UHGV virus genome: UHGV-0180761
Strand: one strand, 5' to 3'
Length of the DNA stretch: 13,254 nucleotides
Source of the DNA: a virus
Positions 1,498 to 13,249 of this stretch are shown here, piece by piece. Below the pieces are notes generated by a model. That model saw nothing but the letters and a program-made list of their open reading frames with translations. It made no database searches and was not told where the DNA came from. A program made the position numbers and the translations under genes. Each line of letters begins with the position of its first letter. Positions within the stretch are counted from its first letter, which is position 1.

Positions 1498-1854
1498 TTA
1501 CTGGTAATCCCCTTCTTCACCGTGGAACTCAAGATCAACCGTGCCTTCTTCGGCATTATGGTTCGCTTCTCCGTGCAGCCAGGCGGACGACAATACATAG
1601 ACCTGACCGTTCGCCAGCTCGGCAGTGATGGTCATCTCATCAGACGAGGTGATTTTGCTCACCGGAAAATTCTTCGGCACCTTGAAGGTCCCTTTGACAT
1701 AAGGCGCACGGTGAGTTTCCTTGCGGTCCACTGAACCGTCCAGGCCGATGATGTCATCATTGACCGTCCTGTTCATGGGCACCTCAATGCCGCCGGTCAG
1801 CGATAGCTGCTGACCGTCAATTTTGAAATAACAGGTTCCCCCGATACGGGCCAT
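1498..1854 (-). CDS. Hypothetical phage protein, 118 aa (possibly a tail-tube-like remnant of the structural module)
   Basis: Clean ORF whose ATG overlaps the stop of the upstream 490-aa ORF (TAATG arrangement), which suggests translational coupling. No diagnostic motif recognised; function is a guess from position. Confidence 0.5.
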   Translation of the reverse strand: MARIGGTCYFKIDGQQLSLTGGIEVPMNRTVNDDIIGLDGSVDRKETHRAPYVKGTFKVPKNFPVSKITSSDEMTITAELANGQVYVLSSAWLHGEANHNAEEGTVDLEFHGEEGDYQ

Positions 1855-3326
1855 TATGCAGACTCCTCTGAATACTGAAGACGGAACTGGTTAACCACGG
1901 CAAAAACACGCAACTGGTTAACATAGTCAGGCGGGAACAGCGTGTTCAGGCGGTTCGGATCGCTGGCATCACGCTCCACAACCAGGTACTGCTTAAACAG
2001 TTCGTAGTTTTCCACGATCCCCGCACGCTCAAGCTGACGGTAGGTTGCCAGCAGTTCCCCTTTGATCACCGCCGGAGTGACAATCGCCTGACCGGGACCA
2101 AAGCGGGTACCGTCACTGGCAAGCTTGTGACGCCCGTACTTACTGGTAATGACGGATTTCAGTTTGCGCAGTACATACGCGCTGGTATGCAGCGTCTCAC
2201 TGTCGAGGTAGCTGTTATCCGCAACCCCGTAAGCGTTTTTCCTGTACGTGGTGACATCACGCTGAATGCGCAGTACCCCGCTTTCGACATACGCCGTTGC
2301 CACGCCATGAGACAGCAGGGTCTGTTGTTCGGTCATCGTGAACCGTTTCCCCTTCGGCGCAGGCAGCATACCCACCAGCTCACCGGTCTGCGTGGGACGT
2401 GCCGGATCGTTGCGGATAAACACCGCTGCGCGGGCGGTACGGCTTGCCGCCAGCTCGTCGGCAGGCGTCTGGGTCTCTTTTTCGTACCCCGCCAGGGTAA
2501 TGTGCTGCTGGTTAAACTGGTCACCTGCGGTCACCAGTTCTGACAGCGTACCGGTCTTTGCCGTATACACATGACCATACAGCTGACGCGCATAGCTCCA
2601 GCGACCGCTGGTATCGTTCATCTCGGTCAGGCGAATTTCGTTTGCCCAGGCTGTCCAGTTCGGTTCTTTGGGACGAACCACCTCGCCGTCACATTCGGCG
2701 GCCTGCTCGTACAGGGCGATGATTTTTTTCCAGAGCCACTGTGCGCAGGTCAAATCATCCTGCGTTCCCCACTGGCGCTTTTTAGGGCTGAATACAACCG
2801 CATCAGGATGGCGAGTTAAAAACTCCTGTTCAGCCGTCTGCGTGTCCGGTTGCGAAGCGTCCGGACGAGAAGTTTTTTTATCTGACGGATCATGTTTTGA
2901 TTTTACTGACGGATCCCCGCCAGATTCTGACGGGTGAAAACCCGCTTTTTTGCCAGATTTCGACGCATCAAATTTTGACGGGTCAGATTTTGATGCGTCA
3001 GATTTTGACGGGTCAGAATCTGACAGTTGAGAAAATGCCGCTGCCTGAAGCTTCGCAACGTTAAGCTGATAAACATTCGACGCATTGCGGTTACCCTGGC
3101 GACGCGCCTTACGCGTTAACCAGCCTTCTGCTTCCAGCCGTGCGATAGCCGTTCTGACGGTACTCATTCCCGCGCCAATCTGGCGGGCAATGGTTTCAAT
3201 TGATGGCCAGCACACACCTTCGTCATTACTGAAATCAGCCTGGCGGGCCATAATTGCCACGCTGGATAATTTCATGCCTGATGCAGCGCAACCATCCCAT
3301 ACATAGCCGGTTAATTTAGTGCTCAT
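1854..3326 (-). CDS. YmfN-like chimeric protein (490 aa): N-terminal winged-helix replication-initiator-like domain, low-complexity repeat linker, C-terminal phage structural or packaging domain
   Basis: ATG at 3326 with AGAGG Shine-Dalgarno; N-terminus has an HTH-like segment (SIETIARQIGAGMSTVRTAIARLEAEGWL); middle is a D/S/K/P-rich repeat; the C-terminal 250 aa look like a phage virion or packaging protein, but I cannot tell sheath-like from terminase-like without a search. Confidence 0.7.
   Translation of the reverse strand: MSTKLTGYVWDGCAASGMKLSSVAIMARQADFSNDEGVCWPSIETIARQIGAGMSTVRTAIARLEAEGWLTRKARRQGNRNASNVYQLNVAKLQAAAFSQLSDSDPSKSDASKSDPSKFDASKSGKKAGFHPSESGGDPSVKSKHDPSDKKTSRPDASQPDTQTAEQEFLTRHPDAVVFSPKKRQWGTQDDLTCAQWLWKKIIALYEQAAECDGEVVRPKEPNWTAWANEIRLTEMNDTSGRWSYARQLYGHVYTAKTGTLSELVTAGDQFNQQHITLAGYEKETQTPADELAASRTARAAVFIRNDPARPTQTGELVGMLPAPKGKRFTMTEQQTLLSHGVATAYVESGVLRIQRDVTTYRKNAYGVADNSYLDSETLHTSAYVLRKLKSVITSKYGRHKLASDGTRFGPGQAIVTPAVIKGELLATYRQLERAGIVENYELFKQYLVVERDASDPNRLNTLFPPDYVNQLRVFAVVNQFRLQYSEESA
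2955..3026. repeat. Tandem repeat, about 5 imperfect copies of a 15-bp unit (GATTTTGACGGGTCA / GATTTTGATGCGTCA), inside the YmfN-like CDS
   Basis: Directly visible: agatttcgacgcatca aattttgacgggtca gattttgatgcgtca gattttgacgggtca gaatctgacag. Encodes pentapeptide repeats (SKSDA/SKSDP) on the minus strand; related degenerate copies continue upstream to about 2893. Confidence 0.8.
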
Positions 3327-3335
3327 GACCGACCT

Positions 3336-3674
3336 CTATTTCCCTGAATTTACGACGAAACTGTTCGAGCGGGCTGAAGCACTCATGCTCATAGCCTTCG
3401 CGGAGGTAGATAACACGTTGTGTTTCCGGCTCCCAACGAATGACTCTGACGGGCACACCGTAGTGATCTTTGAACCAGCGGTTAACTTGTCGCAAAGGAC
3501 TGTCTCCTTCTGCCGGTTGAAATCACCCACAGCCCACTCTGCAAAGCTGTGGGTTACAATTTCCCTGTCACCTGGTACATTTACTGCATAGCAATACTCC
3601 ACCTTCGCTTTTCCACCCGGTACAGGAAGCGCAATCAGTTGCGAGCGACGGTAGTGTGTTGTTAAACTGTTCAT
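3336..3674 (-). CDS. ymfM: YmfM-like protein (112 aa)
   Basis: ORF length equals K-12 YmfM (112 aa) and sits in the same position after the YmfL-like gene; ATGA start/stop overlap with the upstream gene. Identity by length and synteny only. Confidence 0.6.
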
Positions 3675-4234
3675 GCGTTAGTTTCTCCACAGTCACGACA
3701 CGCCACGGCGCCCGGAGCTGCACACTCGCGGGCGTCACTACTTTCTGAAACGCAAAAGATTTTGTAGACCAGTGCTGCATGCTCCTGCAGCTTCGAAATT
3801 GAGAGATACAGCTCATCGTTAATTGCTGTCTTCTCATGCGGTTCCACTACACCGTCTTCAATTGCTGAACGAATCTGTTTTGAATAACTGCCGATCTGTT
3901 CAATGACTTCCAGCAGGCGTTGGTTGATATCGGCGTTGTCCACATCCTCGACGTCAGGAAGAGACACAAAGACGCCATTTGCAGACTGCGCCACAGCATC
4001 AGCAATGAAGTGAGTGCCACCAGCACGCTGTAAAACCATTGCCCATCCCAGCGGGAAAATCTGATCGCCATCTGCACGAAGGCGGTTGAATAAAGCGTTT
4101 TCTGTTACATCGAGCCAGTCAGCCGCTTCAGCGTAACCACCCGGCAACGCCGCGATAGTTTTTCTGACAGCTTTCACGTACCACTCAGGCTGTTTTTCTA
4201 TTTTCCAGTGATGCTTACCCACGGTTAGCCTCAT
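3671..4234 (-). CDS. ymfL: YmfL-like protein (187 aa), function unknown
   Basis: First gene downstream of cro on the minus strand, coupled to the YmfM-like gene by an ATGA overlap; C-terminal CxxC pair ([17 protein letters not shown]). Name by synteny and length (K-12 YmfL about 189 aa). Confidence 0.6.
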
Positions 4235-4265: not shown

Positions 4266-4466
4266 CTAATCTTTCGGATAGATATCCGGTCTTAAGTCAG
4301 ATTTCGTAATTGCACCTGACGTGCATTGCTCAAGTTTTTTAGCCAGCACAAAACTGGCTTTTTTATAGCCATTGAAAACCAGCCGTAAGTAGCCAGGTGT
4401 TGAGCCAACTTTTCCGGCCAACTCGCCCTGCTGTTCTTTGGTTAAAGAGTCCCAATACGCTTTCAT
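4266..4466 (-). CDS. croE: Cro-like repressor (66 aa)
   Basis: Short form MKAYWDSLTKEQQGELAGKVGSTPGYLRLVFNGYKKASFVLAKKLEQ with an HTH; GAGG Shine-Dalgarno upstream of ATG at 4466; divergent from the cI-type repressor across an operator region. The 167-aa ORF in the track is an artefactual extension through the operators. Confidence 0.75.
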   Translation of the reverse strand: MKAYWDSLTKEQQGELAGKVGSTPGYLRLVFNGYKKASFVLAKKLEQCTSGAITKSDLRPDIYPKD

Positions 4467-4556: not shown

Positions 4557-5231
4557 ATGAAAACAATCCATGACATCCGGCGGTCTAACGCCAGAAAACT
4601 GAGAGATGGTGTTGGCGGGAATTCTTCCTTTGCCACTATGATTGATCGCGAGCCAACCCAGACCAGCAGGTTTATGGGAGATGGTGCTACTAAAAATATC
4701 GGTGACAGCATGGCACGACACATCGAAAAATGTTTCGACCTGCCTGTCGGATGGCTCGATCAAGAACACCAGACAACGAACATCACAAAAAAACCTGATG
4801 TTTCAATCACTAATAAACAAATCACATTAGTCCCTGTCATATCATGGGTACAGGCCGGAGCATGGAAAGAAGTTGGATATTCTGAGGTTGATTTGAGCAC
4901 AGCAGAAACGTATCCCTGCCCTGTACCCTGTGGGGAAATGACTTATATCTTGCGGGTGATAGGTGATTCAATGATTGATGAGTACCGCCCGGGAGACATG
5001 ATTTTTGTCGATCCTGAAGTACCTGCCTGCCACGGTGACGACGTTATTGCATTGATGCACGATACAGGCGAAACCACCTTCAAAAGGTTGATAGAAGATG
5101 GGACACAGCGTTATCTCAAAGCGTTAAACCCAAACTGGCCTGAGCCTTACATTAAGATCAACGGTAATTGCTCTATAATTGGTACAGTGATTTTCTCAGG
5201 AAAACCAAGAAGATACAAAATCAAAGCCTAA
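4557..5231 (+). CDS. cohE: CI-type prophage repressor with C-terminal S24 (LexA-like) autopeptidase domain (224 aa)
   Basis: C-terminal S24 motif (VIGDSMIDEYRPGDMIFVDPE ... TFKRL, Ser/Lys dyad context); divergent from cro; length equals K-12 CohE (224 aa). Confidence 0.85.
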   Translation: MKTIHDIRRSNARKLRDGVGGNSSFATMIDREPTQTSRFMGDGATKNIGDSMARHIEKCFDLPVGWLDQEHQTTNITKKPDVSITNKQITLVPVISWVQAGAWKEVGYSEVDLSTAETYPCPVPCGEMTYILRVIGDSMIDEYRPGDMIFVDPEVPACHGDDVIALMHDTGETTFKRLIEDGTQRYLKALNPNWPEPYIKINGNCSIIGTVIFSGKPRRYKIKA

Positions 5232-5243
5232 TCAATGTTTATG

Positions 5244-5266
5244 AACCTGCTTCGGCAGGTTTTTTT
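5244..5266 (+). terminator. Rho-independent terminator downstream of the repressor gene
   Basis: AACCTGC-TTCG-GCAGGTT hairpin followed by a run of 6-7 T, starting 13 nt after the repressor stop codon. Confidence 0.7.
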
Positions 5267-5270
5267 ATAC

Positions 5271-5303
5271 TTGACAATGTACCTTTGAGATACATAATGT
5301 ACC
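5271..5303 (+). promoter_or_regulatory. PL-like sigma70 promoter with two direct AATGTACC operator half-sites
   Basis: TTGACA (5271-5276), 16-bp spacer, CATAAT (5293-5298); AATGTACC at 5276-5283 and 5296-5303 overlap the -35 and -10, sharing the TGTACC core of the cro/cI operators. Confidence 0.55.
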
Positions 5304-5380
5304 CAAGCGAAACAACGAACAGGCAGGACGCCCACGAAGTAGCCGCCTGGGGCATATGAAGTCCAGGATGATTCGTTAGC

Positions 5381-5407
5381 AACAAAAAAGCGCCCTACAG
5401 GACGCTT
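5381..5407 (-). terminator. Minus-strand intrinsic terminator-like hairpin
   Basis: On the minus strand: AAGCG(T)CC-TGTAG-GGCGCTT followed by TTTTGTTG; lies about 240 nt downstream of the stop of the 144-aa minus-strand gene. Confidence 0.4.
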
Positions 5408-5465
5408 AGCTCTTTAACAATCTGGTCCCCATCAACAAGTAACTGATAACTTGAGGAGATGTGAA

Positions 5466-5672
5466 ATGCACAAAACAGAACCCAAAATCGTCGCGCCTGG
5501 CTACACAGATGAGGAAATTTATGAGTGGATGACAAAGAAGCTGGCAGCTATAAACCAGCTTCGTGAAGTGCTGTCTTATCGACAGGAAACAATAGACTCC
5601 TTAAAAAAACTGGATCAGGAAATCACGGTTTTATCACAGGATGTTACTTTAGATATTGTGCAGACAAATTAG
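5466..5672 (+). CDS. Hypothetical small protein (68 aa), first ORF after the PL-like promoter
   Basis: ATG at 5466 with GAGGAG Shine-Dalgarno 6 nt upstream (the ORF track started at an upstream TTG); predicted helical/coiled-coil-like. Its 3-prime end overlaps the convergent 144-aa gene by 29 nt. Confidence 0.4.
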   Translation: MHKTEPKIVAPGYTDEEIYEWMTKKLAAINQLREVLSYRQETIDSLKKLDQEITVLSQDVTLDIVQTN

Positions 5673-6078
5673 GATCCCATTCATTTTCGTCAAAATCATC
5701 AAAGTGATGAATTTGTGATCTCCAGTCTCGATAATCTAAAAATTTCTGGGCGGTTACGCTTATTTTATCAAGTGTGAGTTCATCCTGAATTGAAAGAAGA
5801 AGTTCATCAAATTTCATCTCATTAATCTGTTTTGGCATCCAGTGATGCTTCATCAGAATAAGGTGAACCAGAGCCTTTTTCCCATTCAACTGATTATAGG
5901 GAGTGCCGAATTTCTTCCGGTGCTCATGTAAGACAAGGTCCAAAAGAGTAAGTAATGTTGCCCTTGATTCAACTTTGCTTATTTCGACTGATGACACTAC
6001 CCCACTGATTTCAATGCCCCGATACTTTCCAACATTTTCACAGTGGGATTTGTACAGCGTATAGATATTACCGGACAT
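5644..6078 (-). CDS. Hypothetical protein (144 aa), AT-rich moron gene of unknown function
   Basis: Clean ORF with AAGGA Shine-Dalgarno about 7 nt upstream of ATG at 6078; visibly more AT-rich than flanking prophage genes; opposite orientation to the surrounding plus-strand operon. No motif recognised. Confidence 0.6.
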   Translation of the reverse strand: MSGNIYTLYKSHCENVGKYRGIEISGVVSSVEISKVESRATLLTLLDLVLHEHRKKFGTPYNQLNGKKALVHLILMKHHWMPKQINEMKFDELLLSIQDELTLDKISVTAQKFLDYRDWRSQIHHFDDFDENEWDPNLSAQYLK

Positions 6079-6092
6079 TTCTTTTCCTTTTG

Positions 6093-6143
6093 CGTTGTTG
6101 GGGATAACCAGATTAACCGAATCCTTGTTGTTGGGGAATAACC
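6093..6143. repeat. Direct repeat GTTGTTGGGGATAACCAG / GTTGTTGGGGAATAACCAGG upstream of the 144-aa gene
   Basis: Two 18-20-bp near-identical copies (one has an extra A) separated by about 13 bp, sitting 15-65 bp upstream of the minus-strand start codon. Confidence 0.6.
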
Positions 6144-6364
6144 AGGTCCACCTCGCCTGATGTGGCTAAAAGCAGGCACATAACAGCTAAGTATTTTCAA
6201 CCAGAGAGAATCCTTAGCGTTGTGGTGAATGCGGCTCAGCGCACGCGGGTTAAGGTTGAGGCTGACAGTCGACCTTCTGTGGATACCCACCCGCCTGGTG
6301 TGCAACCTTCGCCAGGCACCGGGAGGCACCCGGCACCACAACTTTATGCTGTGTGTAGTCCTGG

Positions 6365-6410
6365 CGGTACCAGTTTGTACCCTTGCTTCCGGCTGGTACC
6401 GTCCTTTTTA
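6365..6410 (+). promoter_or_regulatory. Inverted repeat CGGTACCAG-N19-CTGGTACCG followed by a T-run; operator cluster or terminator-like element in a non-coding stretch
   Basis: Perfect 9-bp arms; the spacer contains TTGTACCC (same core as the cro/cI operators); followed by TCCTTTTTA. Lies in a roughly 400-bp GC-rich region with no convincing ORF. Confidence 0.35.
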
Positions 6411-6546
6411 CAAAACAGAGAAGAGCATCACCGGACGACGGGCTCATAACCCAATCCATCCGGGCGGCTGCCACCGCAGGTGTTCTTCTCTGTTTTGTGG
6501 AGAAACTAATCGGCCTTGCAGGGTCGATATGATGAGGAGCAGCAAA

Positions 6547-6909
6547 ATGGCTAGCGAACGCAGTACTGATGTGCAGGCATTTATCGGGGAGCTGGACGGC
6601 GGCGTATTTGAAACCAAAATCGGCGCAGTTCTCAGTGAAGTCGCTTCCGGTGTGATGAACACGAAAACCAAAGGTAAGGTCTCACTCAACCTGGAAATCG
6701 AACCATTTGATGAGAACCGTGTGAAAATCAAACACAAACTCTCATATGTTCGCCCGACTAACCGCGGGAAAATTTCCGAAGAAGACACCACCGAAACGCC
6801 GATGTATGTCAATCGCGGTGGTCGCCTGACTATTCTGCAGGAAGACCAGGGACAGTTACTGACTCTTGCCGGTGAACCTGACGGAAAACTCCGCGCAGCA
6901 GGTCGTTAA
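6547..6909 (+). CDS. YfdP-like prophage protein (120 aa), function unknown
   Basis: Start set at ATG 6547 (GAGGAG 8 nt upstream) rather than the 226-aa track ORF; 120 aa and position upstream of a YfdQ-like gene match the CPS-53 yfdP-yfdQ-yfdR arrangement as I recall it. Confidence 0.55.
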   Translation: MASERSTDVQAFIGELDGGVFETKIGAVLSEVASGVMNTKTKGKVSLNLEIEPFDENRVKIKHKLSYVRPTNRGKISEEDTTETPMYVNRGGRLTILQEDQGQLLTLAGEPDGKLRAAGR

Positions 6910-8519: not shown

Positions 8520-8765
8520 ATGCTTCAAATGCTGACACTTGAGGAATGGGCTGCGGAAAAATACAGAAGTAATCCTCCAAGCGTGTCCACATTGCGTCGT
8601 TATGCTAAGCAGAATTTATTTTGTCCACCGGCAATGAAACAAGGTCGACTATGGCGAGTGCGTGAGGACGCAGAGTTAGTTGGGGAATTAGTTACTCCTG
8701 TCATCAAGAAAAATGATTCTATTATTCTACAAAGGATTTTAAGTAATGGCAGCCAGACCACGTAA
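8520..8765 (+). CDS. xis: Excisionase (81 aa)
   Basis: Small basic protein directly upstream of and overlapping the integrase start by 20 nt; start set at ATG 8520 (GAGG 9 nt upstream), giving 81 aa, the length of K-12 XisE. Confidence 0.7.
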   Translation: MLQMLTLEEWAAEKYRSNPPSVSTLRRYAKQNLFCPPAMKQGRLWRVREDAELVGELVTPVIKKNDSIILQRILSNGSQTT

Positions 8766-9873
8766 AAATAATGTTTCAGTCCCGAACTTGTATCCGCTTT
8801 ATAGTAGAAAAGTAAATAAAGTCTATTGGCGATATAAACATCCAGTGACCGGGAAGTTTCATTCTTTAGGCACAAACGAAGCTGAAGCCATTGCTATTGC
8901 CACTGAGGCAAATTCACGCCTGGCTGAGCAAAGAACCCGGCAGATTCTGGCTATCAGTGACAGGATCGCAACCAGCAAAGGAAAAGCAATCACAACGTCA
9001 ACCTGGTTAGATCGCTATCAAGCAATCCAGGAAGACAGACTGAAAAGTGGCGATATAAAGCTCAACACCTATAAACAGAAAGCCAAACCAGTATCCTTGC
9101 TCAGGGAACGAGCAGGACTGAAGTTGATATCAGCCGTTGATGTCAGAGATATAGCACAATTACTTGATGAGTATATCTCTGCTGGACAGCCTAGAATGGC
9201 CCAGGTCGTAAGGTCTGTATTGATCGATGTGTTTAAGGAAGCACAGCATTACGGCGAAGTTCCACCAGGGTATAACCCTGCTCTTGCAACGAAGCAACCC
9301 AGAAGGAAAATTAGCCGTCAACGCCTCAGCCTAGAAGAATGGAAAAAAATATTCGATATCGCAGACGCCGCTCATCGTTATATGGGAAATGCCATGCTCC
9401 TAGCTTTGGTCACTGGGCAGCGTTTAGGAGATATATCCAAAATGAAATTTAGTGATATTTGGGAGGATCATCTTCACGTCATTCAGGAAAAGACCGGGAG
9501 CAAAATCGCTATCCCTCTTTCTTTACGTTTGAATGCTATCAACTGGTGTTTACGTGATGTAGTAGCTCGCTGCCGTGACTACGCAGTCAGCCCATACTTA
9601 GTGCATTTTTTCCGTACTACATCACAGGCTGAACGTGGCGCACAGGTAAAAGCTAATACACTAACGATGAACTTTAGCAAGGCACGTGATCTGGCAGAAA
9701 TTGATTGGGGTACTGGAACTCCAGCAACTTTTCATGAACAAAGATCTTTATCTGAGCGTCTTTACAAGGAACAAGGGATTGATACCAGAAAGTTACTGGG
9801 CCATAAAACCCAGCAGCAAACCGATCGTTACCATGATGACCGAGGGAAAGGTTGGAGCAAAGTAGCATTGTAA
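8746..9873 (+). CDS. intE: Tyrosine integrase, phage integrase family (375 aa)
   Basis: C-terminal catalytic region with conserved Arg/His/Tyr context (LLGHKTQQQTDRYHDD), N-terminal arm-binding region; 375 aa equals K-12 IntE; preceded by xis. Confidence 0.9.
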   Translation: MAARPRKNNVSVPNLYPLYSRKVNKVYWRYKHPVTGKFHSLGTNEAEAIAIATEANSRLAEQRTRQILAISDRIATSKGKAITTSTWLDRYQAIQEDRLKSGDIKLNTYKQKAKPVSLLRERAGLKLISAVDVRDIAQLLDEYISAGQPRMAQVVRSVLIDVFKEAQHYGEVPPGYNPALATKQPRRKISRQRLSLEEWKKIFDIADAAHRYMGNAMLLALVTGQRLGDISKMKFSDIWEDHLHVIQEKTGSKIAIPLSLRLNAINWCLRDVVARCRDYAVSPYLVHFFRTTSQAERGAQVKANTLTMNFSKARDLAEIDWGTGTPATFHEQRSLSERLYKEQGIDTRKLLGHKTQQQTDRYHDDRGKGWSKVAL

Positions 9874-10078: not shown

Positions 10079-10576
10079 ATGCCACATTTAGACGAAATTC
10101 GCAGAAAGCTAAGGAAACAATGTCCTACATCCGCAGGCGAGGATGGTGAAGAGTATGCTCTTAAATGGTTAGAAAACTCCCAATGGGAGTTTGTATATGT
10201 CGAACAAGGAAAAACAGACCTATCTAAAAGTTTAAAAATATATGGGGGAAAACGCCCCGATTTTATTATTAAAGTTGATAGTAACACCTTTATTCTTCTG
10301 GATGCAAAGTATCATTCAACAGAGAACTGCACCTCCTTTACACTCACAGAGTGTGAAATAGGTAAGTATCGCGCACTCAAGCAATTTTTAATTAATAAAA
10401 ATAGCGAACTTACGTTCGAAGTGATTTTCATGGTATTTCCAAAAGAAAAAGATGGCAAGAAATTTGTATTTGTTAGTTTGGATGAGTTTGATAAAGGAGA
10501 ATGTGTAACTCTAGCATCAAAAAATGCAACAAAGATTAGTCTACTCAATAGAGATAATTTATGGCTTGACCATTAA
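10079..10576 (+). CDS. Hypothetical protein (165 aa) with a PD-(D/E)xK nuclease-fold signature
   Basis: Motif P60-D61 (GGKRPDFII) followed 14 residues later by hydrophobic-hydrophobic-D-A-K (FILLDAKY), with upstream Glu candidates; AAGGGA Shine-Dalgarno upstream of ATG; located in the AT-rich cargo after int. Confidence 0.6.
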   Translation: MPHLDEIRRKLRKQCPTSAGEDGEEYALKWLENSQWEFVYVEQGKTDLSKSLKIYGGKRPDFIIKVDSNTFILLDAKYHSTENCTSFTLTECEIGKYRALKQFLINKNSELTFEVIFMVFPKEKDGKKFVFVSLDEFDKGECVTLASKNATKISLLNRDNLWLDH

Positions 10577-10865: not shown

Positions 10866-11705
10866 CTATCTAAATCTAACCTCACAAAACCAGTTATTTT
10901 CCGAGAGACAACTATAGAGTGCGGATTGCCAAGAATTTAAGCTTACCGATTTTTTTCCAGCTGCGGTTTCAGTCAAGTATTTTTTTAACTCGATACTCCC
11001 CCCCCCATCGTAAATTCTCTTTGCGATATATTCAATGCTCGCTAGTTCTTCAGCTGCATGTGATGCATAAAGAGCAGACAACTTAAATGCCTTAAAGTGA
11101 TACTTCATACGTTTAGCTAAAAGTGGGGGGCAATCTTCAGGTGGCTCTACATAAAACTCTATCGCTACAGGAATAGATTCCCGTATTTTTGCCTTAACCC
11201 AAACAAATGCTTCTACATCATCGTAATATGGGTGCAAAGTTTCTTCTTCTGAGCAAATTGGGATATCTTCGCTCTTTGTTTTATTACAATCCTGACAGGC
11301 TGGTATAAGATTAAAAGGCGATACAGCCAATGATGGAAAATGTGCTTTAGGTAAGTGATGATCTAATGTCGATACTACTCTTTGAGAACATAGTGGGCAT
11401 CTTCCATGATCTGGAAGTGACATTAACTTGTCATAATAGATACGCCCTGGGGCTAATTTCTTAGCCATTCTGCTTGTATAGACAACCTTCATTTCGTCAA
11501 CTGTAACAACAGTGGCAACATTGTCTTTAGGCAAAATTGTATGTAATTGTGCAATTGATACTTTTGCATCAAATTCTATTGAGGAATCTTCTATTTCTTG
11601 AGAACATGCTATAAGCCTCCTCTTTAAATCTTCATCGCGAACTCGATCAATGCATGCATTAAATACATCCAACGCACTATCATTCGGTTTTAAGAGTTTT
11701 TTCAT
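10866..11705 (-). CDS. HNH endonuclease-domain protein (279 aa), second gene of an ATPase-nuclease operon
   Basis: Zinc-finger HNH signature CPLC(103-106) ... DHHLPK(115-120) ... N132 ... CQDCN(137-141); the ATG overlaps the stop of the upstream ATPase gene (ATGA), so the two are translationally coupled. Confidence 0.8.
   Translation of the reverse strand: MKKLLKPNDSALDVFNACIDRVRDEDLKRRLIACSQEIEDSSIEFDAKVSIAQLHTILPKDNVATVVTVDEMKVVYTSRMAKKLAPGRIYYDKLMSLPDHGRCPLCSQRVVSTLDHHLPKAHFPSLAVSPFNLIPACQDCNKTKSEDIPICSEEETLHPYYDDVEAFVWVKAKIRESIPVAIEFYVEPPEDCPPLLAKRMKYHFKAFKLSALYASHAAEELASIEYIAKRIYDGGGSIELKKYLTETAAGKKSVSLNSWQSALYSCLSENNWFCEVRFR
10998..11006. repeat. Homopolymeric C9 tract (G9 on the coding strand) inside the HNH gene
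   Basis: Directly visible: ctccccccccccatc at 10996-11009; encodes Gly234-Gly236 of the HNH protein. Confidence 0.9.
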
Positions 11706-13249
11706 GATTGGTTTCTCTTAATTAAAAACAAAGCCCGCAAAATACCTCTAGCTTCAATTCCAAGTTGCCCATTGAAATTTTGCACAGCTGAATCGTAATC
11801 TTCGAATTTATTTACAGCATCGTCAAGAAGATTATGGAATCCAGAGTCGGTATTTTCCAATCCAAATACCTCCCTCGTTAGTATACCCACATTTTCACCG
11901 AAAGATTCTGTTTCTAGCCTTTCTACTTTAGACAAGTAGCCACTACGCCACAACTTCCACGTACAGCTTCGAGGAACTTCCTGGAGAACTACAGGAGAGT
12001 GGGTAGCTATTATAGATACTGCATTCCTATTAATTAATAAATCAGAAAGAGACCTTACAAAAGCTGATAATAATGGTGGATGGAGATGAGCTTCTGGTTC
12101 ATCTAAAAAAACCAAGCTTCTTTCTTCCATTGTCTCGACAAGTCTAGTGATAGTTAGCAATACAATTTTGTGCCCGGAACTTAAATTTTTGAATACTCTT
12201 CCTGCAATATCTTTAAACTCATCTTCATCTTGTCTATTCAATATTGATGCTACATTAATGTCAGCAAATACTGGATCTGACTCCAGCTTATCCACAGCCC
12301 TTTTCCAACGTTCAATTTTCCCTCCTGCCTTACAAGAAAGCATACTTTTCACGAATTCATTTTTCAATATAACAGGGCTTTTGGGCGGGAGACTTTTCTC
12401 ATCACCTTTTTTTACTCTTTTTAGTCCCACATATGAAAACTGTATACCTGTAGATTTATCTTTTTTTTCTGATAAAGGTTCTGTTTCATCAAAAGCGCTA
12501 AAAGTGACTGATACTACGTTAGAGAAAAGCTCACCAGCTAGTTGATCTTTAGATGAAAATTCACCGACTTTTGTTGGCGTTGTATTTTCGTCAATTAATG
12601 AACTAATCATATTATTCATTAAATGCGTTTTCCCAACACCATTCCGACCAATTAGCACATGAATATTTGTTGGGGGATTGCTCTCTGGTATCACTTCAAA
12701 ACTTAACTTAATACGGTCAGAGTCAGTGCCTTTCATCACTGGTGAGTTATATGAAAATGAATATTTTGAAAGTCGAGCACCTCCGTTCGCAAGTCGACGA
12801 AACTGTCCCTTAATAGATGTATGGCTGACGGATCTCAGAAGAGATATGCTAGTGACCCTCTCATTTATTGCTTTATTATATATATCTTCACTCAGAGCAA
12901 TATCATTAAGCGATGATAATATTTCATTTCGGATATCTTCTCCTAGTTCATTCAACACTTCGTAAAAACTATCATCTTGACCAACGGAGAAAAAACTCTC
13001 ATCTAGTTTTTCGAAAGCTTCAGGGATACTTGGTCTACTTTGACCTTTCGCCATATTCAATTGGCCAATTTTAGTAGAACCAATAATATTCTTATCCTTA
13101 TTTGAATCTATATAAACCAATGTATACATTGTAGAAAATTCAAACCAGTCATCCCAATTATCAGTAATTAAATAGGCACAGTTAGATTGTTCAACAGAGC
13201 ACATACTTCCCGCAGGCAGCACCTTAAATCTCATCTTTATCCCACTCAT
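11702..13249 (-). CDS. ABC-type (AAA_15/AAA_21-like) ATPase, 515 aa, with an unrecognised 200-aa N-terminal domain; first gene of the ATPase-HNH operon
   Basis: Walker A GRNGVGKT (aa 201-208, nt 12626-12649), signature-like LSSGHK (356-361), Walker B LVFLDEPE (379-386), H-loop ATHSP (415-419). In-frame TAA sits immediately upstream of the first ATG, 5 nt from the window edge, so the promoter is outside the window. Confidence 0.8.
   Translation of the reverse strand: MSGIKMRFKVLPAGSMCSVEQSNCAYLITDNWDDWFEFSTMYTLVYIDSNKDKNIIGSTKIGQLNMAKGQSRPSIPEAFEKLDESFFSVGQDDSFYEVLNELGEDIRNEILSSLNDIALSEDIYNKAINERVTSISLLRSVSHTSIKGQFRRLANGGARLSKYSFSYNSPVMKGTDSDRIKLSFEVIPESNPPTNIHVLIGRNGVGKTHLMNNMISSLIDENTTPTKVGEFSSKDQLAGELFSNVVSVTFSAFDETEPLSEKKDKSTGIQFSYVGLKRVKKGDEKSLPPKSPVILKNEFVKSMLSCKAGGKIERWKRAVDKLESDPVFADINVASILNRQDEDEFKDIAGRVFKNLSSGHKIVLLTITRLVETMEERSLVFLDEPEAHLHPPLLSAFVRSLSDLLINRNAVSIIATHSPVVLQEVPRSCTWKLWRSGYLSKVERLETESFGENVGILTREVFGLENTDSGFHNLLDDAVNKFEDYDSAVQNFNGQLGIEARGILRALFLIKRNQS

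Follow-up and report, generated by a model that had tools for sequence, protein, structure and literature searches.

A conserved convergent gene pair of the ECs1072 family in the promoter-proximal early-left slot of a remnant Escherichia coli prophage

The virus genome UHGV-0180761 (13,254 nucleotides (nt), the whole of which is called the window here) carries on its minus strand a gene for a protein of 144 amino acids (aa) at 5644-6078, which an original prediction made from the letters alone had presented as a possible undescribed superinfection-exclusion moron opposed to an early-left operon. We found this gene to be one member of a conserved convergent pair. Its product belongs to the ECs1072 family of phage-associated proteins, and the 68-aa open reading frame (ORF) that its 3′ end overlaps is a conserved, co-inherited partner and not an incidental neighbour in the operon. 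Our tentative reading, held at a little below even confidence, is that the region 5378-6147 forms a mobile accessory cassette in the slot proximal to the PL promoter of an SfIV/e14-like remnant prophage, and that it encodes an excludon-like two-gene module.

The ECs1072-family gene and its convergent partner

The 144-aa gene is real and protein-coding. It starts with ATG, and the Shine-Dalgarno sequence claimed for it is indeed present as AAGGA, the reverse complement of 6085-6089, 6 nt 5′ of the start codon. The protein scores 157.8 bits, against a cutoff of 70, with the NCBIfam model NF033230 ("ECs1072 family phage-associated protein") in a near full-length alignment (residues 4-144 onto model positions 2-142 of 142), and it matches PHROG 5286 (function category 'unknown function') with E=1.5e-90 over residues 1-144 of 144. 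The earlier statement that no domain was recognisable, so that the protein could count as undescribed, is too strong in view of this curated though uncharacterised family. Proteins from several E. coli phages and gp36 of Shigella phage SfIV have the same sequence (100% identity), and 421 of the 5,426 complete E. coli genomes (~8%) carry the gene. For the collection of loci, a genome scan with a narrow alignment gave 3 loci and a scan of viral sequences gave 80, all protein-identical. An exhaustive profile search of the family yielded 76 clusters at 50% identity, with named relatives in Escherichia, Salmonella, Yersinia, Serratia, Pectobacterium, Proteus, Morganella, Pantoea, Erwinia and Klebsiella. 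It had been suggested that homologues might reveal the ORF to be a fragment of a larger, unrelated gene; this is ruled out by the full-length relatives of ~143-157 aa found across these clusters, the shorter matches appearing to be partial.

Near-invariant residues of the family are L50, R54, L64, G66, A69, H72 and W134. The AlphaFold model built from a 47-sequence family alignment is all-alpha, with a predicted local distance difference test score (pLDDT) of 94.7 and a predicted template modelling score (pTM) of 0.89, and such confidence needs a coevolutionary signal in the alignment. The protein is soluble and mildly acidic, with a maximal Kyte-Doolittle average over 19 residues of 0.84 and no predicted transmembrane segment. 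No meaningful Pfam, PADLOC or PDB-sequence relative was obtained with the 144-aa protein, the 47-member family alignment or the partners. The AT-richness noted earlier is borne out, since the GC content of the gene is 37.9%, below the 49.1% and 44.3% of the kilobases on either side and the 45.1% of the window, and the same offset recurs in each lineage: at all loci examined (the window and 12 others) the ECs1072-family gene lies 4-13 GC points under its own locus. A literature search for ECs1072, WP_000016389 and SfIV orf36 turned up no study of function and a single entry in a microarray table, in which the ECs1072 probe falls 2.1-fold at a growth transition in uninduced cultures of O157 Sakai (PMC2241611). 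As a separate observation, Salmonella phage ST64B (AY055382, L003) has a full-length 144-aa ECs1072-family ORF at 3281-3715, between sb50 and the holin gene sb51, which is unannotated in the deposited record and matches PHROG 5286 with E=2e-17.

The partner gene (5466-5672, plus strand, 68 aa) has GAGGAG 7 nt 5′ of its ATG, runs in the same direction as the PL operon and matches PHROG 1744 ('unknown function') with E=6e-35 over residues 1-68 of 68. In the window its N-terminal motif EPxIxxxxxTxEExxxW is followed by a predicted helical, coiled-coil-like region. Across the partners the motif takes the form (E/Q)P-x-(I/F)-x-x-(G/P)-(D/G)-x-(T/S/N)-x-x-(E/Q)-L-x-x-W-(L/M), again with a helical stretch predicted after it. 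The partner is small and acidic, and the maximal 19-residue Kyte-Doolittle averages of the partners are 1.01 or less, with no predicted transmembrane segment. Against the 68 aa of the window, they measure 79 aa in Erwiniaceae (an 88-aa ORF if counted from the first ATG), 80 aa in Serratia, 81 aa in Pantoea, 85 aa in Klebsiella phage KPP5665-2 (gp45), 117 aa in two species of Yersinia, 119 aa in Pectobacterium, 119 aa as annotated with an 85-aa core in ST64B (Sb50), and 190 aa in Proteus and Morganella. A hidden Markov model (HMM) made from the partners of the other lineages only recovers the 68-aa ORF with E=1e-6 among 811 ORFs searched; the one further match at that level is this ORF as it occurs in locus L001, beyond which the best value is E=0.25. 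Cross-matches connect PHROG 3501 with PHROG 1744 as subfamilies of the partner.

The 29-nt overlap predicted between the 3′ ends of the two genes is found at 5644-5672, and it extends to 62-227 nt in other lineages. On seeding from the ECs1072 side, a convergent partner overlapping at the 3′ ends (29-227 nt) was found in 12 of the 13 lineages. On seeding from the partner side (Citrobacter, Enterobacter and E. coli M056), 3 of the 3 loci had a convergent, overlapping gene of 148-151 aa, and these genes score 142-159 bits on the ECs1072 family HMM. The divergence of the two proteins is correlated over 14 loci (Mantel r=0.83, equalled in 0 of 5000 permutations). The pair occupies three kinds of slot: a PL-proximal one that separates the repressor gene from the early-left genes in lambdoid prophages (Yersinia, Pectobacterium, Proteus, Morganella), one flanked by the antiterminator gene Q and the gene for the holin (ST64B, Klebsiella, Citrobacter, Enterobacter, E. 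coli M056), and one in the P2-like early operon between cox and the replication gene (Pantoea, Erwiniaceae). In each context examined the partner is read in the direction of the surrounding operon and the large gene against it, as was described for the window. As far as we could find, this rule of orientation and architecture is new.

One alternative is that the 144-aa gene stands alone as a lysogenic-conversion moron that modifies host physiology, for instance as a regulator or modulator of a host protein, with the overlap due to tight packing and the small ORF being an ordinary early gene. The terminator, the low GC content and the presence or absence of the gene between related prophages would fit such a moron, as would an antisense orientation like that of lambda bor in the late operon. 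The variation of the ECs1072 transcript with growth phase in Sakai (PMC2241611) also fits. However, chance packing does not explain why pairing, orientation and overlap persist over ~22-72% protein identity and three operon contexts, and no helix-turn-helix or other regulator fold was detected in the 144-aa protein. We consider the solitary moron rather improbable.

A further feature of the overlap may be mentioned here. At ~5669-5678 lies a near-palindrome, TGGGATCC(C)A, with an equivalent site in L003, L006, L100 and L105-L109. In several lineages it codes for W-D-P on both strands, giving 'EWDP' in the ECs1072-family protein, where it contains the invariant Trp, and 'PWDP' in the partner; the partner of the window ends just before it.

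Cassette exchange, leader and source element

By pairwise alignment the homology breakpoints of the cassette lie at 5377-5380 and at 6148, which nearly coincide with the 5381-6143 of the original prediction. Some part of the stretch 5200-6600 is present in 2,896 complete E. coli genomes, most of it in 407 only. Flanks of 96-100% identity enclose other cargo, namely a 171-aa minus-strand gene (L095), a 91-aa plus-strand gene together with a 49-aa minus-strand gene, or the 91-aa gene alone; in K-12 e14 flanks of ~90-95% identity enclose plus-strand ymfJ and minus-strand ymfI. The 171-aa cassette is homologous to the window up to 5425, which includes the terminator, and again from 6094, which includes the direct repeats. 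Because it has the same repeats and terminator, the expression shell must be reused for different cargo, and these elements, which had been assigned to the 144-aa gene as its own, belong to a promoter/terminator 'shell' that is common to cassettes.

The minus-strand hairpin noted earlier was recovered as an intrinsic terminator at 5388-5407 (read from 5407 to 5388; AAGCGTCCTGTAGGGCGCTT then TTTTGTTG), having an 8-bp stem with 5 GC pairs followed by a U-run, and a folding energy of -11.5 kcal/mol. It lies 237 nt past the stop codon of the 144-aa gene and upstream of the start of the 68-aa ORF. As the terminator is beyond the start codon of the partner, the predicted minus-strand mRNA would be antisense to the entire 68-aa gene, with a predicted transcript overlap of ~290 nt. 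On this prediction the antisense reach over the small gene would exceed the 29 nt of ORF overlap named earlier.

The upstream direct repeat is also present as described. It is a tandem repeat on the minus strand, GTTGTTGGGGA(A)TAACCAG, at 6094-6111 and 6127-6145, the copies being identical save for one inserted A. It is not a chance match, since it is conserved in the second cassette type, L095, and it would sit in the leader or promoter DNA ahead of the minus-strand gene. The repeat recurs in inverted form (AATCTGGTCCCCATCAACAAG) at 5419-5439, and together with 6094-6114 and 6124-6137 it brackets the cargo. In the window the inverted copies are 75% complementary over 20 nt and 93% over 14 nt, and their duplex energy is -29.4 kcal/mol as against -17.1 +/- 3.9 for shuffled sequences. 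In L095 the copies at ~521-540 and 1078-1100 are identical at 18 of 20 positions. These inverted repeats of ~20 bp may serve in pairing of the 5′ and 3′ untranslated regions (UTRs) or may be recombination scars of cassette exchange.

The right flank contains a leader element (GTGCCTG...CAGGCGAGGTGG, 6148-6185) that is conserved across genera and also stands 5′ of the unrelated e14 ymfI. In the lambdoid PL-slot versions the leader 5′ of the large gene has a mean identity of 77% across genera, remarkably high for a non-coding stretch. It holds two inverted repeats, GCCTG-N16-CAGGC and TCTTGG-N13-CCAAGA, in which 3 pairs show compensatory changes and 98.4% of the cells are paired; 2 of the 500 shuffles do as well. 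In relatives an extended -10-like motif, TGgTATCTT, follows just downstream of the leader element, ~45 nt before the ATG. In the window the duplicated direct repeat stands where the relatives have the hairpin TCTTGG-N13-CCAAGA.

On the left, the PL leader and left flank of the cassette (5311-5377, plus strand) give, when read on the minus strand, a weak terminator-like hairpin at 5335-5319. The first ~70 nt of the PL transcript (…AACGAACAGGCAGGACGCCCACGAAGTAGCCGCCTGGGGCATATGAAGTCCAGGATGATTCG…) are conserved in Yersinia and Pectobacterium prophages with different repressors and can form hairpins on either strand. This leader could be nut/put-like, or it could be a terminator shielding PL and cI from the antisense unit.

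Beyond the right breakpoint lies an element resembling a small RNA (sRNA) of the STnc100/PasD type (6189-6411, plus strand), which has its own terminator at 6362-6410, is divergent from the 144-aa gene and belongs to the conserved flank outside the cassette. It matches Rfam RF02076 (STnc100) over the full model length with 43.1 bits (gathering score 47, E=1e-7) and contains the conserved core GGUGAAU...CACCGGGAGGCACCCGGCACCA. RefSeq treats the stretch as a pseudogene with a frameshift, and in e14 as ymfH. In Klebsiella phage KPP5665-2 an STnc100 of 108 bits occupies the corresponding place, divergent from the adjacent ECs1072-family gene. The idea that STnc100 is a fixed third component of the module was rejected, as it was found only in the window and in KPP5665-2 and in none of seven other loci (E<=0.1). 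Between the terminator of this element and the start codon of yfdP there is, in addition, a long inverted repeat at 6410-6498 (plus strand) with 25-nt arms, 84% complementary, and a 39-nt spacer.

The conservation of leader and terminator around unrelated cargo raises the possibility that the antisense transcription or the RNA is itself the functional entity, a head-on unit dampening read-through from PL or PR′, and that the ORF is incidental. The unit is invariably head-on and promoter-proximal to strong lytic promoters, and the e14 ymfI-ymfJ pair has been reported among the convergent excludons detected by RNA-seq (PMC12288877). Yet protein length and key residues are conserved over the 76 clusters at 50% identity, the confident structural model requires a coevolutionary signal, and the 144-aa gene has a good Shine-Dalgarno sequence. 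An explanation by RNA alone is in our view highly improbable, and an RNA effect is probably an added layer rather than the whole story.

The source element is a lambdoid prophage of E. coli that resembles SfIV and e14 in type. From the ORF list and Pfam-type annotation, the window has on its minus strand an invertase gene (50-640), a cII-like gene (3671-4234) and a cro/YdaS-like gene ending at 4266. These are followed on the plus strand by a cI-type repressor gene (4557-5231; LexA/S24-type, Peptidase_S24), identical to e14 YmfK, with an intrinsic (Rho-independent) terminator 3′ of it at 5243-5262. Directly 3′ of the repressor gene and its terminator is a PL-like sigma-70 promoter, TTGACA-16-CATAAT (5271-5298, plus strand, 11 of 12 positions matching), which on sequence grounds appears to be the PL equivalent and would drive the early-left operon through the cassette. 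After the sRNA-like element come yfdP, yfdQ (DUF2303) and yfdR, then the excisionase gene and the integrase gene (8746-9873). In a 490-aa ORF on the minus strand (1854-3326) the N-terminus of a replication initiator (HTH_36) is joined to C-terminal tail-sheath domains (Phage_sheath_1, 1C); the prophage is therefore a deleted remnant, like e14, which retains the immunity region, the cassette, the sRNA-like element, yfdPQR and xis/int. Two observations concern the far end of the window. A 165-aa ORF at 10079-10576 is without matches. Just past the end of the prophage that carries the integrase gene, where the DNA is AT-rich (31-40% GC), there is a PtuA/PtuB-like two-gene system (10866-13249, minus strand; PADLOC PDC-M01A/B, E=3e-210 and 2e-106) of a Septu-type AAA ATPase and an HNH nuclease.

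Possible function of the pair

The arrangement suggests the following scheme. In the lysogen the repressor would silence PL, so that the 144-aa protein alone would be produced. Minus-strand transcription would run from the conserved leader to the terminator at ~5385 and give an mRNA of ~700 nt; being antisense to the partner gene, this mRNA would mop up leaky PL transcripts. Upon derepression, strong transcription from PL would cover the partner first and continue antisense across the 144-aa gene, and this read-through would silence that gene via transcriptional interference and RNA duplex formation, in the manner of an excludon-type toggle. By analogy with known lysogen-expressed exclusion systems, the 144-aa protein might act in the cytoplasm of the lysogen as an anti-phage or abortive-infection factor, with the partner serving the phage itself for escape or neutralisation. 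Of the functions considered here we favour this assignment most, though we regard it as possible rather than likely. The regulated ECs1072 probe signal in uninduced Sakai cultures (PMC2241611) fits this reading, as does a SieB gene that stands next to the pair in one Yersinia prophage and is likewise antisense. With a neutralising partner, the lytic growth of the phage itself would go ahead unharmed. An exclusion function of the 144-aa gene is offered here as a hypothesis. Neither protein has a hydrophobic segment, which makes a membrane mechanism of the SieB or RexB type unlikely.

Several results weigh against the cassette acting as such an anti-phage toggle. Lineage L101 has an ECs1072-family gene without a recognisable partner, and it is the sole exception to the pairing among the lineages examined. 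The fold search with the 144-aa model gave no match and no catalytic motif was seen in the protein. PADLOC models of known and candidate defence systems gave 0 matches for the 144-aa protein, 46 relatives, the partners and the alternative cargo. Judged by sequence, either of the two proteins could be the effector. As to expression, a scan of the minus strand for the sigma-70 consensus gave no promoter for the 144-aa gene, and in the window the duplicated repeat takes the place of the extended -10-like motif conserved in relatives. The minus-strand transcription unit is hence seen at its terminator, and its promoter is a presumed one.

The same convergent overlapping architecture could also be that of a toxin-antidote module with the roles reversed, in which the partner, as first gene of a lytic operon, is toxic to the host (a takeover or kil-like function), the ECs1072-family protein and the antisense 3′ UTR neutralise leaky partner expression, and the cassette is addictive and stabilises lysogeny. 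Promoter-proximal early genes of lambdoid phages are often host-killing (kil, kilR). The predicted antisense mRNA spans the ribosome-binding site of the partner as well as its whole ORF, and the cassette is kept in a heavily deleted remnant, as addiction modules often are. On the other hand, the partner is small, acidic and coiled-coil-like and has no toxin domain; canonical type II toxin-antitoxin systems are co-directional operons and the present pair is convergent; and L101 retains the large gene without a partner, which would be odd for an antidote. On balance we find this reversed arrangement unlikely.

Returning to the reading of the 144-aa protein as the effector, its widest form would make the pair a new prophage 'excludon' of defence and self-immunity, widespread in Enterobacterales, in which a novel-fold cytoplasmic effector is placed head-on to PL, PR′ or P2 Pe and is both silenced and neutralised by derepression of its own prophage. 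Convergent pairs of this kind would then gather in the PL-proximal slot as a general hotspot, which is also occupied by e14 ymfJ/ymfI and by the 91-aa/49-aa pair. This general form is doubtful at present. Should the model of a lysogen effector with an escape partner be right, a prophage may carry a factor harmful to phages and yet induce normally, since its effector gene is turned toward the lytic promoter and its antidote comes from the gene that lytic transcription reaches first. A role would also be assigned to a family found in ~8% of complete E. coli genomes, in characterised phages such as SfIV and ST64B and widely elsewhere in Enterobacterales. More convergent accessory pairs could then be sought in PL-proximal and Q-holin slots, and e14 ymfJ/ymfI of K-12 would be a ready genetic model of the architecture. 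If that model is wrong, the locus is an ordinary moron that is already catalogued.

Comparison with known systems

The closest relation is simple membership, as the 144-aa gene has the same size and the same prophage context as the other genes of NF033230/PHROG 5286 (SfIV gp36, ECs1072 of O157 Sakai). The e14 pair ymfJ/ymfI occupies the same slot, between the ymfK repressor gene with its PL leader and the STnc100-like region, and it is likewise convergent and overlapping, with the minus-strand ymfI behind a homologous leader. Homology of the proteins was tested for and rejected (hhalign probability <=0.1% for YmfI vs the ECs1072 family and for YmfJ vs the partner family), so that the e14 genes are analogous cargo and not homologous. 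In e14 the SOS response brings a strong late induction of ymfJ, with a far smaller change in ymfI (PMC11002266). Because the e14 pair has been reported as an excludon and its ymfJ is SOS-induced, the transcriptional part of the proposed scheme gains support by analogy.

The original prediction had drawn a link to rexAB and sieB. No PADLOC match and no Pfam match to SieB or Rex was found for the two proteins, both of which are without hydrophobic segments, so that the link does not hold at the level of sequence. The sieB gene of P22 and lambda is an early-left gene expressed in the lysogen that aborts superinfecting phages, and P22 also has esc, an escape function that safeguards the growth of the phage itself; it arises in frame from within sieB and is not a convergent gene. 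The likeness would lie in the logic of a lysogen effector with an escape function, which is proposed here by analogy, whereas SieB is a membrane protein and the present pair has no PF14163 match. It may be added that a SieB-domain gene (PF14163) does lie beside the pair in a Yersinia prophage (L007, 5827-6321), between the repressor gene and the ECs1072-family pair, and that it also opposes the early-left operon. Lambda rexAB and BstA/aba of Salmonella phage BTP1 adjoin the immunity repressor and are expressed in the lysogen. The former is co-transcribed with cI and RexB is a membrane protein; BstA has ~300 aa and a self-immunity element, aba, which is a DNA element. The present pair is not homologous to either (0 PADLOC matches) and consists of two small soluble convergent proteins, but the self-immunity element of BstA would parallel the role proposed for the partner. 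Type II toxin-antitoxin systems differ from the locus, whose genes are convergent and whose two proteins match no toxin or antitoxin domain of Pfam.

Classical morons such as lambda bor and HK97 gp15, in the definition of Hendrix and Juhala, share with the 144-aa gene the terminator, the deviant base composition and the presence or absence between related phages, and bor is, like the 144-aa gene, antisense to the surrounding lytic operon. The description as a moron is to this extent upheld, with a terminator, low GC content and presence or absence between near-identical prophages, and the cassette can be called moron-like on the strength of these sequence features. It differs from them in being a two-gene convergent pair that straddles the lysogenic and the lytic programmes, and a promoter of its own is putative, the sigma-70 scan of the minus strand having given none. 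Excludons, first described in Listeria, are convergent overlapping transcription units. The genes here are convergent too, and the extensive transcript overlap, predicted from the position of the terminator alone, would lead to mutually exclusive expression. Taken together, the more fitting description of the locus is that of a conserved pair of convergent genes, from a family already catalogued though uncharacterised, which occupies a variable slot close to the promoter.

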